The notes beneath the pieces were generated by a model. It saw only the letters and a program-made list of their open reading frames with translations, had not been told where the DNA came from and did no database searches. A DNA stretch of 64,000 nucleotides, taken from IMG/VR virus record IMGVR_UViG_3300042448_000816, positions 1 to 64,000 of that record; one strand, given 5' to 3'. Positions 3,381 to 27,238 of this stretch are shown in pieces. Both the position numbers and the translations under genes were made by a program. The DNA comes from a virus. Numbering within the stretch: the stretch's first letter is position 1; each line of letters starts with the position of its first letter.

Positions 3381-3408
3381 ACTGCTGGGTATCAGTCTAA
3401 ACTACCCA
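3381..3408 (+). ncRNA. H-type pseudoknot repeat, copy 1
   Basis: ACTG-CT-GGGTA-T-CAGT-CTAAAC-TACCC. Confidence 0.75.
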
Positions 3409-3973: not shown

Positions 3974-4000
3974 CAACCTGAGCAAGTTGTAAAACTGCTT
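3974..4000 (+). ncRNA. H-type pseudoknot repeat, copy 2
   Basis: CAAC-CT-GAGCA-A-GTTG-TAAAAC-TGCTT. Confidence 0.75.
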
Positions 4001-5583: not shown

Positions 5584-5611
5584 CGTCCTGGACATGACGT
5601 CAAACTGTCCA
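5584..5611 (+). ncRNA. H-type pseudoknot repeat, copy 3
   Basis: CGTC-CT-GGACA-T-GACG-TCAAAC-TGTCC. Confidence 0.75.
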
Positions 5612-6789: not shown

Positions 6790-6816
6790 ACACCTGAGCA
6801 AGTGTCAAAACTGCTC
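6790..6816 (+). ncRNA. H-type pseudoknot repeat, copy 4
   Basis: ACAC-CT-GAGCA-A-GTGT-CAAAAC-TGCTC. Confidence 0.75.
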
Positions 6817-23135: not shown

Positions 23136-23422
23136 TACTTATCCTCCATAGTCAGACTCTTCCAAGTTTCAGCCCACTGATCCTTGCTTCTGTGCTTTGA
23201 AAACTCTCTAGAAATTTTTCCATTCTCAAGAAAAATACCTCCCCAGACGCCCCACTCTTTTTGAGAAACCCCAACGGCGAAGCATTCTCTGGATACTGGA
23301 CATCCAGCACAGAGTTTGTCTATTGCAGGACGAAGGGCAAGATCTTCTTCATATTTATCAAAAAATAAATTTGAGTCAAAGCCTTTACAGGAGCCTTCGT
23401 CTTTCCACTCATGCCTTCCCAT
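23135..23422 (-). CDS. whiB: WhiB-family Fe-S transcription factor
   Basis: W....C, FF, CAGCPV..EC and GVWGG motifs. Confidence 0.92.
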   Translation of the reverse strand: MGRHEWKDEGSCKGFDSNLFFDKYEEDLALRPAIDKLCAGCPVSRECFAVGVSQKEWGVWGGIFLENGKISREFSKHRSKDQWAETWKSLTMEDK

Positions 23423-26013: not shown

Positions 26014-26074
26014 AATACTTCTCCTTATAAAATTTAGTATGCTATTAGCATAATCTTATTATACCATTTATTAG

Positions 26075-26147
26075 AGCCTCCAACAGGACTTGAACCCGTC
26101 ACCTACGCATTACAAGTGCGTCGCTCTACCAGATGAGCTATAGAGGC
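26075..26147 (-). tRNA. tRNA-Thr(UGU)
   Basis: Cloverleaf; anticodon arm ACGCA-CTTGTAA-TGCGT; TTCAAGT T-loop; CCA not encoded. Confidence 0.92.
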
Positions 26148-26151
26148 ATTG

Positions 26152-26895
26152 TTATTTAATTTTACCATTCTTGCCACCAAAAATCAAGTTTGTAATGTGA
26201 TTTTTAATACTAACCTTTTCTCCAGACGCCTTTGTGCCACTTCTGTAAAAGTTTTGAAATACTGGCTTTGTTATTGGAACAGAAATTGCCTCTATTCTTT
26301 TACGATGATAGTCTTGAAAATCTTCTAGCAGCTCAGGATCGTTCTCTACTCTAGATTCTTTTAGCTGAAAGTTTTCTACGGTGCCCCTTTCAATTGGAAA
26401 GAATACAAACAATGGCTCACCTTTTTTAAAGTTATAGCTGCCAGGTTCTGTAAGCAAAAAATTATAGGTAAAAGTATAAGATAGCCAGTCAGTTTCGACA
26501 ATAGCATCTAATGGCTTAAGTCCTTGCTTTGTTTCATTTGGAACTCCACGAATATATGTTGAAAAACCTTCTGGAGTTCTTATAATAAAGTCTACGTGTA
26601 TTGTAAAAGTCCCGCCGCCAAAATAACTGTGGAGGTGATCTTTAAAATATTCTTCTTCAGATGTTACATGAAAGTCAACGTCTTTCTCTTCTACACCACC
26701 ATACCAGTCTAGGGTAAAGTCTGCTGGACACAAGACTGCATAGCCGTACTGATTAGCAATGTTTAAAGGAATACACTTATAAGCAAACTTTTCTCGAGAC
26801 TCGTTCATCCATTTTCTTTTTGCAGTTAATGGAACTACTGGAAATATTGGAGGGCCAGGCAACAACCTGTTAAGTATTATTTCTTGCTTAGCCAT
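26152..26895 (-). CDS. DUF6065-like protein
   Basis: RKWM..FAYKCIPL.IANQYG, SYFG.G.FT, IVETDW.Y.FT.N and F.KGEP motifs; start moved to MAKQE. Confidence 0.75.
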   Translation of the reverse strand: MAKQEIILNRLLPGPPIFPVVPLTAKRKWMNESREKFAYKCIPLNIANQYGYAVLCPADFTLDWYGGVEEKDVDFHVTSEEEYFKDHLHSYFGGGTFTIHVDFIIRTPEGFSTYIRGVPNETKQGLKPLDAIVETDWLSYTFTYNFLLTEPGSYNFKKGEPLFVFFPIERGTVENFQLKESRVENDPELLEDFQDYHRKRIEAISVPITKPVFQNFYRSGTKASGEKVSIKNHITNLIFGGKNGKIK

Positions 26896-26914
26896 CTTTA
26901 CTCTTTCTGTTTTG

Positions 26915-26988
26915 CGACTCTGACCAGACTTGAACTGGCGACCCCTACCGTGACAGGGTAGTGCTCTAACCAACTGAGCTACAGAGCC
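26915..26988 (-). tRNA. tRNA-Asp(GUC)
   Basis: Cloverleaf; anticodon arm CTACC-CTGTCAC-GGTAG. Confidence 0.93.
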
Positions 26989-27039
26989 TGGTGTCCACTT
27001 TTATCCTTGTCTCTTTAGGAGTGGTGTAGACTAAACCAT
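26989..27039 (-). ncRNA. Structured tRNA-spacer element A (pseudoknot plus hairpin)
   Basis: TGGT-TTA-GTCTAC-ACCA-C-TCCT/AGGA-TAAAA-GTGGAC-ACCA. Confidence 0.65.
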
Positions 27040-27042
27040 TAG

Positions 27043-27113
27043 AGCGACTAGCGAGAATCGAACTCGCACATTAACCTTGGCAAGGTTACGCACTACCACT
27101 ATGCAATAGTCAC
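27043..27113 (-). tRNA. tRNA-Gly(GCC)
   Basis: Cloverleaf; anticodon arm TAACC-TTGCCAA-GGTTA. Confidence 0.9.
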
Positions 27114-27163
27114 TGTTGTCCATTTTTATCTCATACCCGTGAGAGTGGTATGGACCACACCAT
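27114..27163 (-). ncRNA. Structured tRNA-spacer element B (pseudoknot plus hairpin)
   Basis: TGGT-GTG-GTCCAT-ACCA-C-TCTCA/TGAGA-TAAAA-ATGGAC-AACA. Confidence 0.65.
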
Positions 27164-27166
27164 TAG

Positions 27167-27238
27167 CTGACCCACCTGGATTCGAACCAGGAACCTTAGA
27201 GTTAACAGCTCTCTGCTCTGCCGTTGAGCTATGGATCA
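27167..27238 (-). tRNA. tRNA-Asn(GUU)
   Basis: Cloverleaf; AGAG-CTGTTAA-CTCT anticodon arm; TTCGAAT T-loop. Confidence 0.92.

Follow-up and report, generated by a model that had tools for sequence, protein, structure and literature searches.

The window, i.e., the whole stretch of 64,000 nucleotides that was analysed (positions 1 to 64,000 of the 112,370-bp virus record IMGVR_UViG_3300042448_000816), contains four clustered tRNA genes on the minus strand, and two of the spacers between them are filled entirely by related elements, designated here as A and B. In the direction of transcription, the following features were identified:

27166..27238, minus strand: tRNA-Asn (GUU), found with ARAGORN and Rfam; it encodes the discriminator and C74, without CCA
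27114..27165, minus strand: element A, the entire Asn-Gly spacer, 52 nt (covariance model, 78.1 bits)
27042..27113, minus strand: tRNA-Gly (GCC), found with ARAGORN and Rfam
26989..27041, minus strand: element B, the entire Gly-Asp spacer, 53 nt (covariance model, 65.6 bits)
26914..26988, minus strand: tRNA-Asp (GUC), found with ARAGORN and Rfam
26152-26895, minus strand: gene of a DUF6065 protein (197 bits), which splits tRNA-Asp from tRNA-Thr
26074..26147, minus strand: tRNA-Thr (UGU), the final tRNA in the cluster

It should be noted that the gap between tRNA-Asp and tRNA-Thr is just 3 nt in many relatives, whereas in the window the DUF6065 gene is inserted there. The discriminator was followed by a single C and then by A/U-rich bases in all four tRNA genes of the window, with CUAAU in three of the four; the CCA ends of these tRNAs must be completed after transcription, and no gene for a CCA-adding enzyme is encoded in the phage genome. 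The CUAAU trailer was also found behind tRNA-Thr, where the element is absent; therefore, the invariant C and U preceding the element belong to the tRNA trailer and not to the element itself. No RNA-related gene was found near the spacers, the neighbours being those of a subtilase, a proteasome-like protein and the DUF6065 protein, none of which is a candidate partner gene. The window also contains a gene of a WhiB-like transcription factor (23234-23407, minus strand; PF02467, 47 bits), a family detected only in Corynebacterium among 14 control genomes, and thus the host of the phage is probably an actinobacterium. Actinobacterial hosts possess RNase J and many tRNA genes without encoded CCA. 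The phage belongs to an uncultured freshwater lineage, whose relatives come from IMG/VR and from freshwater metagenome contigs.

Both spacer sequences quoted in an earlier sequence-only reading of this DNA matched the minus strand exactly. According to that reading, each spacer element extended from a CTA trailer to position +1 of the next tRNA; the spacers are indeed filled up to this position, but UGGU is preceded by CUAA and not by CTA. The strand order in both copies was UGGU, 3 nt, a 6-nt strand, ACCA, C, a hairpin, UAAAA, a 6-nt complement and a 4-nt tail, and element A as a whole consists of 3 nt (UAA), the putative pseudoknot core (27162-27118) and the 4-nt tail. The individual parts are located as follows:

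27159..27162, minus strand: element A, 5' strand of P1, UGGU, invariant
27156-27158, minus strand: element A, loop L1, 3 nt
27150..27155, minus strand: element A, 5' strand of P2, 6 nt
27145..27149, minus strand: element A, 3' strand of P1, ACCA (27149-27146), and an invariant unpaired C (27145)
27129..27144, minus strand: element A, embedded hairpin P3, 4-5 bp, with GGGUA within the loop
27118..27128, minus strand: element A, invariant UAAAA (27128-27124) and 3' strand of P2 (27123-27118)
27038-27035 with 27025-27022, minus strand: element B, P1
27031-27026 with 26998-26993, minus strand: element B, P2
27020-27004, minus strand: element B, hairpin
27003-26999, minus strand: element B, UAAAA
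26992-26989, minus strand: element B, tail

The 20-nt pattern shared by the two copies occurred at these two sites only, both in the window and in the whole virus record, and the covariance model likewise matched copies A and B only. A short ORF within the spacer was ruled out, since copy B stops after two codons.

Homologues were recovered by pattern scans of IMG/VR, by a search anchored on the neighbouring proteasome-like protein and by one metagenome scan. In the pattern scans, true matches had five or six of the six P2 positions complementary and were located behind a tRNA end, whereas chance matches had at most four complementary positions, except for one match with five that did not lie behind a tRNA. 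In total, 78 instances representing 45 distinct sequences were aligned by the covariance model, and these homologues show covariation in P2 and in the hairpin. Outside this lineage, blastn against GenBank phages returned tRNA similarity only and no relatives, and all the matches listed by the pattern scan for genomes of bacteria and archaea were chance hits, the best having five of six P2 pairs and none lying behind a tRNA. The Rfam 15 search matched tRNAs alone at E-values up to 10; when the spacer was searched alone, only the tobamovirus pseudoknot model UPD-PK2 was returned, without significance (13 bits, E = 2.8), and no covariance model of Rfam 15, including those of twister, pistol, hatchet, HDV, preQ1-I/II/III and manA, matched the element. 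Literature searches gave no report of the spacer element. Consequently, the sequence family is new with respect to Rfam, GenBank phages (blastn) and the searched literature, although its kind is already known, since phage tRNA arrays contain structured RNAs other than tRNAs as well as small pseudoknots.

The compensatory changes first noticed between the two copies in P2 and in the inserted hairpin extend over the whole family. Among the 45 distinct sequences, 99.6% of the P2 cells were paired, and both sides had changed at six of six pairs, in ten strand combinations; in the hairpin stem, pairing was 100% and two of the four pairs showed double changes. None of the column shuffles attained the observed covariation score, and when partner columns were slid out of register, pairing fell to 28-45%. 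RNAalifold independently returned P2 and the hairpin and left UGGU and ACCA unpaired. The G-U pairs observed (six in P2 and five in the hairpin) are compatible with the tRNA strand only. Thus, the spacer element is a genuine structured RNA. No variation was found in P1 (UGGU/ACCA), the bulged C, UC/GA or UAAAA, save for one A-to-G change that keeps a U-G pair, and roughly 24 bases are invariant; the constancy of P1 and UAAAA, previously seen in two copies, therefore holds across all 45 distinct members bar that single P1 change (locus L389).

The first scans fixed the letters of UGGU and ACCA, whereas P1 and P2 were both left free in two later scans, for which the T-loop of the tRNA, the trailer, CUC and GAUAAAA served as anchors. 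All genuine IMG/VR matches of these scans retained UGGU/ACCA, and in the metagenome collection all 26 matches were genuine and 25 retained it, the ACCA strand of L389 being replaced by GCCA, which pairs as U-G. P1 was pairing-compatible in 100% of the members, but it showed no compensatory change, only this one-sided transition from U-A to U-G, and, being invariant, it receives no support from covariation. The description of the element as a covarying pseudoknot is accordingly accurate for P2 and the hairpin, while for the knot the data are consistent with P1 pairing without proving it.

The pseudoknot is nevertheless favoured because of the fixed loop lengths, the weakness of the nested alternative and the presence of 27-nt H-type knots in the same genome. 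L1 (3 nt), P2 (6 bp), the gap between P2 and ACCA (0 nt), the single C and the five-nucleotide UAAAA were constant, and indels were confined to the hairpin loop and the tail. A tRNA-like NCCA 3' end was ruled out by the variability of this tail. In the nested alternative, UGGU would pair with the four nucleotides following P2; this pairing occurs in 78% of cells, its third pair is broken in 25 of the 45 sequences, and in many members these four nucleotides already belong to the next tRNA. An H-type pseudoknot formed by UGGU and ACCA is thus plausible and consistent with the alignment, although unproven by covariation, and we consider it fairly probable. The invariance of P1 could instead reflect recognition by a protein or tertiary recognition without pairing.

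The H-type knots of the same genome are 27 nt long and lie just after gene ends:

3381-3407, plus strand: 27-nt H-type pseudoknot
3974-4000, plus strand: 27-nt H-type pseudoknot
5584-5610, plus strand: 27-nt H-type pseudoknot
6790-6816, plus strand: 27-nt H-type pseudoknot
17254-17227, minus strand: 27-nt H-type pseudoknot

When the five copies were compared by eye, both stems differed among them and yet remained complementary, and the third loop consisted of C or U, then AAA, then A or C, the complete register being P1(4)-CU-P2(5)-W-P1'(4)-Y(0-2)AAA(A/C)-P2'(5). Four of the five passed a strict scan, in which shuffles yielded about one match, and in 2.3 Mb of viral loci the matches of the same scan were confined to two relatives belonging to this lineage (L161 and L199). 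A generic scan for H-type pseudoknots with an inserted hairpin in 2.7 Mb of unrelated loci gave 105 matches versus 46 in shuffles, mostly AT-rich ones, and was of no informative value. The spacer element and these mini-pseudoknots have in common a 4-bp P1 and a P2 in which the P1 loop pairs with a strand further downstream, and the third loop of the spacer element (C and UAAAA) fits the mini-pseudoknot pattern once the embedded hairpin is set aside. However, L1 of the spacer element is 3 variable nucleotides and not CU, nothing stands between P2 and P1', P2 has 6 bp and not 5, the third loop contains the extra hairpin, and P1 is invariant, whereas that of the mini-pseudoknots covaries; moreover, the spacer element is found behind tRNAs only and the mini-pseudoknots at gene ends. 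Overall, the spacer element may have descended from the small knot, of which it looks like a derivative with an additional hairpin in loop 3.

In every member, the element starts four bases past the tRNA discriminator, and it was found only directly behind tRNAs. In 53 distinct contexts, the upstream tRNA was tRNA-Asn in about 41, tRNA-Gly in 6 (copy-B type), tRNA-Met in 1 and an odd tRNA-like gene in 2; where no upstream tRNA was called, either the contig was cut or the odd tRNA-like gene was present. The latter gene (L068:2308-2377, also in L387, L394 and L401) was left unassigned by ARAGORN with a two-base anticodon call and scored 44-47 bits with the Rfam tRNA model; the pseudoknot element stands behind it in L394 and L401. 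A downstream tRNA follows P2 after 3-5 nt in most members but not in all: in L197, L213 and L378, the element closes the cluster and is followed by an AT-rich region and an ORF. Since some relatives have no tRNA after the element, RNase P cannot set its 3' end everywhere.

In related phages whose neighbouring protein is 64-73% identical, the element is missing behind tRNA-Asn, and in several close relatives the Gly-Asp gap is just 3 nt. The element is therefore dispensable for tRNA maturation, and an obligatory role as a tRNA-processing element, which the sequence-only reading had offered as its alternative, is unlikely.

The same spacers are occupied by other folded RNAs in the relatives. The Gly-Asp spacer contains copy B, an unrelated RNA of 46-53 nt, an RNA of about 90-190 nt, or only 3 nt, and in the Asp-Thr/Glu spacer an RNA of 67-76 nt or RNAs of 167-173 nt are possible. 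The unrelated 46-53-nt RNA (L004:2507-2558; same spacer in L017, L025, L028, L033, L035, L041, L055, L178, L208 and L392) has a covarying 9-10-bp stem around a conserved loop of 27-29 nt; its sequence is unlike that of the element studied here, and it gave no Rfam match. The 67-76-nt RNA (L023:2539-2605, L038:8570-8645, and 69 nt in the Asp-Thr spacer of L210) has the order P1, P2, P1', hairpin, P2', and both of its long helices differ over three copies while remaining complementary, with GUUUCGUC kept in the hairpin loop; it resembles HDV minus P3 and minus the conserved catalytic C. That tRNA-flanked slots are filled in such a modular way argues most strongly for the elements being independent RNAs, which would be excised by the tRNA-trimming enzymes.

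Longer spacer RNAs of about 90-192 nt were also observed in the Asp-Thr and Gly-Asp spacers of L169, L198, L212, L383 and L401, and several of these conserved RNAs matched no Rfam family. One group of 167-173 nt starts with UCAAAG or UCGAAG, and another of ~173 nt has a T-arm-like stretch. In two loci, a known RNA was found between tRNA-Gly and tRNA-Asp (Rfam gathering cut-off 55.2):

L212:4904-5088: manA RNA (RF01745), 75.8 bits
L068:2800-2980: manA RNA (RF01745), 61.8 bits

manA, an RNA of cyanophages, is an orphan riboswitch candidate (PMC2864571). Known from marine cyanophages, it is flanked here by tRNAs in freshwater phages whose host is probably actinobacterial.

It is tentatively proposed, with somewhat less than even confidence, that the spacer element is an accessory, nuclease-resistant small RNA or cap that is cut out by tRNA processing. 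On the tRNA strand, an RNA of ~46 nt would be folded such that the 6-bp P2 encloses an internal loop and the short hairpin P3, while UGGU at the 5' end and ACCA in the internal loop, both invariant, most likely pair with each other; an H-type pseudoknot would result, with its third loop (C, hairpin, UAAAA) alongside the 4-bp P1. Transcription within a polycistronic tRNA precursor would make the RNA the 3' trailer of tRNA-Asn (A) or tRNA-Gly (B). Its 5' side would be freed by a cut after the discriminator of the upstream tRNA, RNase Z being the enzyme expected for tRNAs without encoded CCA, and its 3' side by RNase P at position +1 of the next tRNA or, where no tRNA follows, by exonuclease trimming to P2, which would give a product of roughly 50 nt. 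The release of a small RNA by tRNA processing, suggested previously, fits this context. The compact knot of triple-strand type may keep the RNA stable, and the ~24 invariant bases may serve as a recognition surface for a partner, presumably a protein and perhaps a ribonuclease. The invariance of so many bases, while P1 covaries in the mini-pseudoknots of the same genome, argues for a specific partner rather than a mechanical role.

Among the described RNAs, the stable RNAs species 1 and 2 of the T4 tRNA cluster (rnaC and rnaD) are 120-140 nt long and have tRNA-like ends; they are encoded between the tRNA genes of the phage without being tRNAs, and are released from the precursors that also yield the tRNAs; to our knowledge, their function is still unknown. 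The spacer element resembles them in being conserved, structured and located between tRNA genes on the same strand. RNAs of the preQ1-II type are also H-type pseudoknots with a hairpin inserted in the third loop, and the neighbouring tRNA-Asn and tRNA-Asp are queuosine tRNAs; the likeness lies in the fold layout, whereas the element is located outside a 5' UTR and matched no preQ1 class of Rfam.

Compared with the proposed released RNA, a roadblock acting in cis against exonucleases and protecting the neighbouring tRNA precursors, like the xrRNA and coremin elements of RNA viruses, is a less likely explanation. It would stall a 5'-3' exonuclease (RNase J) arriving from the RNase Z cut or a 3'-5' exonuclease arriving from the RNase P cut. 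Its H-type architecture with an A-rich third loop recurs in the gene-end mini-pseudoknots, the WhiB gene indicates a probable actinobacterial host, and in the three loci where the element terminates the cluster it stands like a 3' cap; mechanistically, such a block is possible, since flaviviral xrRNAs block bacterial RNase J1 in vitro (PMC5760640). Coremin (xrRNA-C), its Watson-Crick variant (PMC6546385, PMC10321173) and the spacer element are all small and viral, with a short hairpin whose loop pairs downstream past an A-rich spacer. However, coremin requires a loop of the YGAD type, CUAC in the spacer and a hairpin downstream (PMC10321173), whereas the loop of the element has 9 nt, begins with G or U, is variable thereafter and contains neither YGAD/YGNNAD nor CUAC. 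The S2 stem of the element has 6 bp and not 3, and an extra hairpin lies inside the spacer before S2. In coremin, hp2 directly follows S2; in most members of the present family, but not in all, the acceptor stem of a tRNA begins 3-5 nt after S2. The resemblance to coremin is architectural only. Ordinary H pseudoknots of the frameshift type do not stall Xrn1 (PMC10321173), which counts against the roadblock and means, in general, that nuclease resistance is not to be assumed. In addition, the other junctions in the same clusters are 0-3 nt long and need no protection, and a generic roadblock should allow P1 to covary as it does in the mini-pseudoknots.

It is improbable that the element is a cis determinant of the 3' maturation of the upstream tRNA, which would position RNase Z or RNase E or prevent misfolding of the neighbouring tRNA. 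The distance to the discriminator, which is 4 nt throughout the family although that to a downstream tRNA varies or such a tRNA is absent, and the lack of encoded CCA agree with such a role; against it, the CUAA-type trailer also stands behind tRNA-Thr without the element, the same tRNAs are matured in relatives that have 3-nt spacers or lack the element, and copy B is replaced by unrelated RNAs in the same spacer.

Very improbable, judging from the sequences, would be a new class of self-cleaving ribozymes of ~46 nt, which would cut at or near its own 5' end and free the trailer of the CCA-less tRNA, thereby matching theta ribozymes in function but having a different and simpler fold. Theta ribozymes are minimal HDV-like ribozymes adjoining phage tRNAs, located within about 5 nt of a tRNA end. 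They depend on the HDV fold and on a catalytic C as the first J4/2 nucleotide (PMC10879173). The spacer element occupies the same niche directly 3' of phage tRNAs, being a small pseudoknotted RNA a few nucleotides from the tRNA 3' end (4 nt after the discriminator) with many invariant bases, and its strand order (P1, P2, P1', hairpin, P2') resembles HDV with P3 removed. In contrast to theta ribozymes, its P1 has 4 bp rather than 6-7, and P3, L3 and P1.1 are absent and do not fit, as zero nucleotides separate the 5' strand of P2 from ACCA in 45 of 45 distinct members; the equivalent of J4/2 is the invariant UAAAA, without C. No Rfam ribozyme model, including the HDV family, was matched, and, apart from the general tRNA trailer, no dinucleotide is conserved as a candidate cleavage site. 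The view of the sequence-only reading that the element is not a theta or HDV-like ribozyme was therefore borne out. A short stretch resembled one twister sequence; a twister-like reading was ruled out by the lack of an Rfam match and by the differing loop architecture. Finally, a DNA-level signal in the spacer, i.e., a promoter or recombination site instead of an RNA structure, is scarcely credible, because most family members have G in place of the key final T of the -10-like hexamer that, in copy A, overlaps UAAAA and the first P2' base, a promoter scan finds nothing in the spacers, and the compensatory changes and strand-specific G-U pairs point to RNA.

Codon usage or anti-defence is the role usually ascribed to phage tRNA clusters. 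Among the uncultured freshwater phages of this lineage, the inter-tRNA gaps appear as interchangeable slots for folded RNAs. If the element traps nucleases or is released as an RNA that resists them, DNA phages would gain a strategy so far known from RNA viruses, and the element would represent a very small and easily tested model RNA; if it is mere padding of the precursor, tRNA arrays would still be marked as places to hunt for new RNA families. A further feature of such an array was observed in L096 (3184-3231; also in L097, L175 and L206), where the element and tRNA-Asp are separated by a 43-nt hairpin and a subsequent U run, which resemble an intrinsic terminator within the tRNA cluster.
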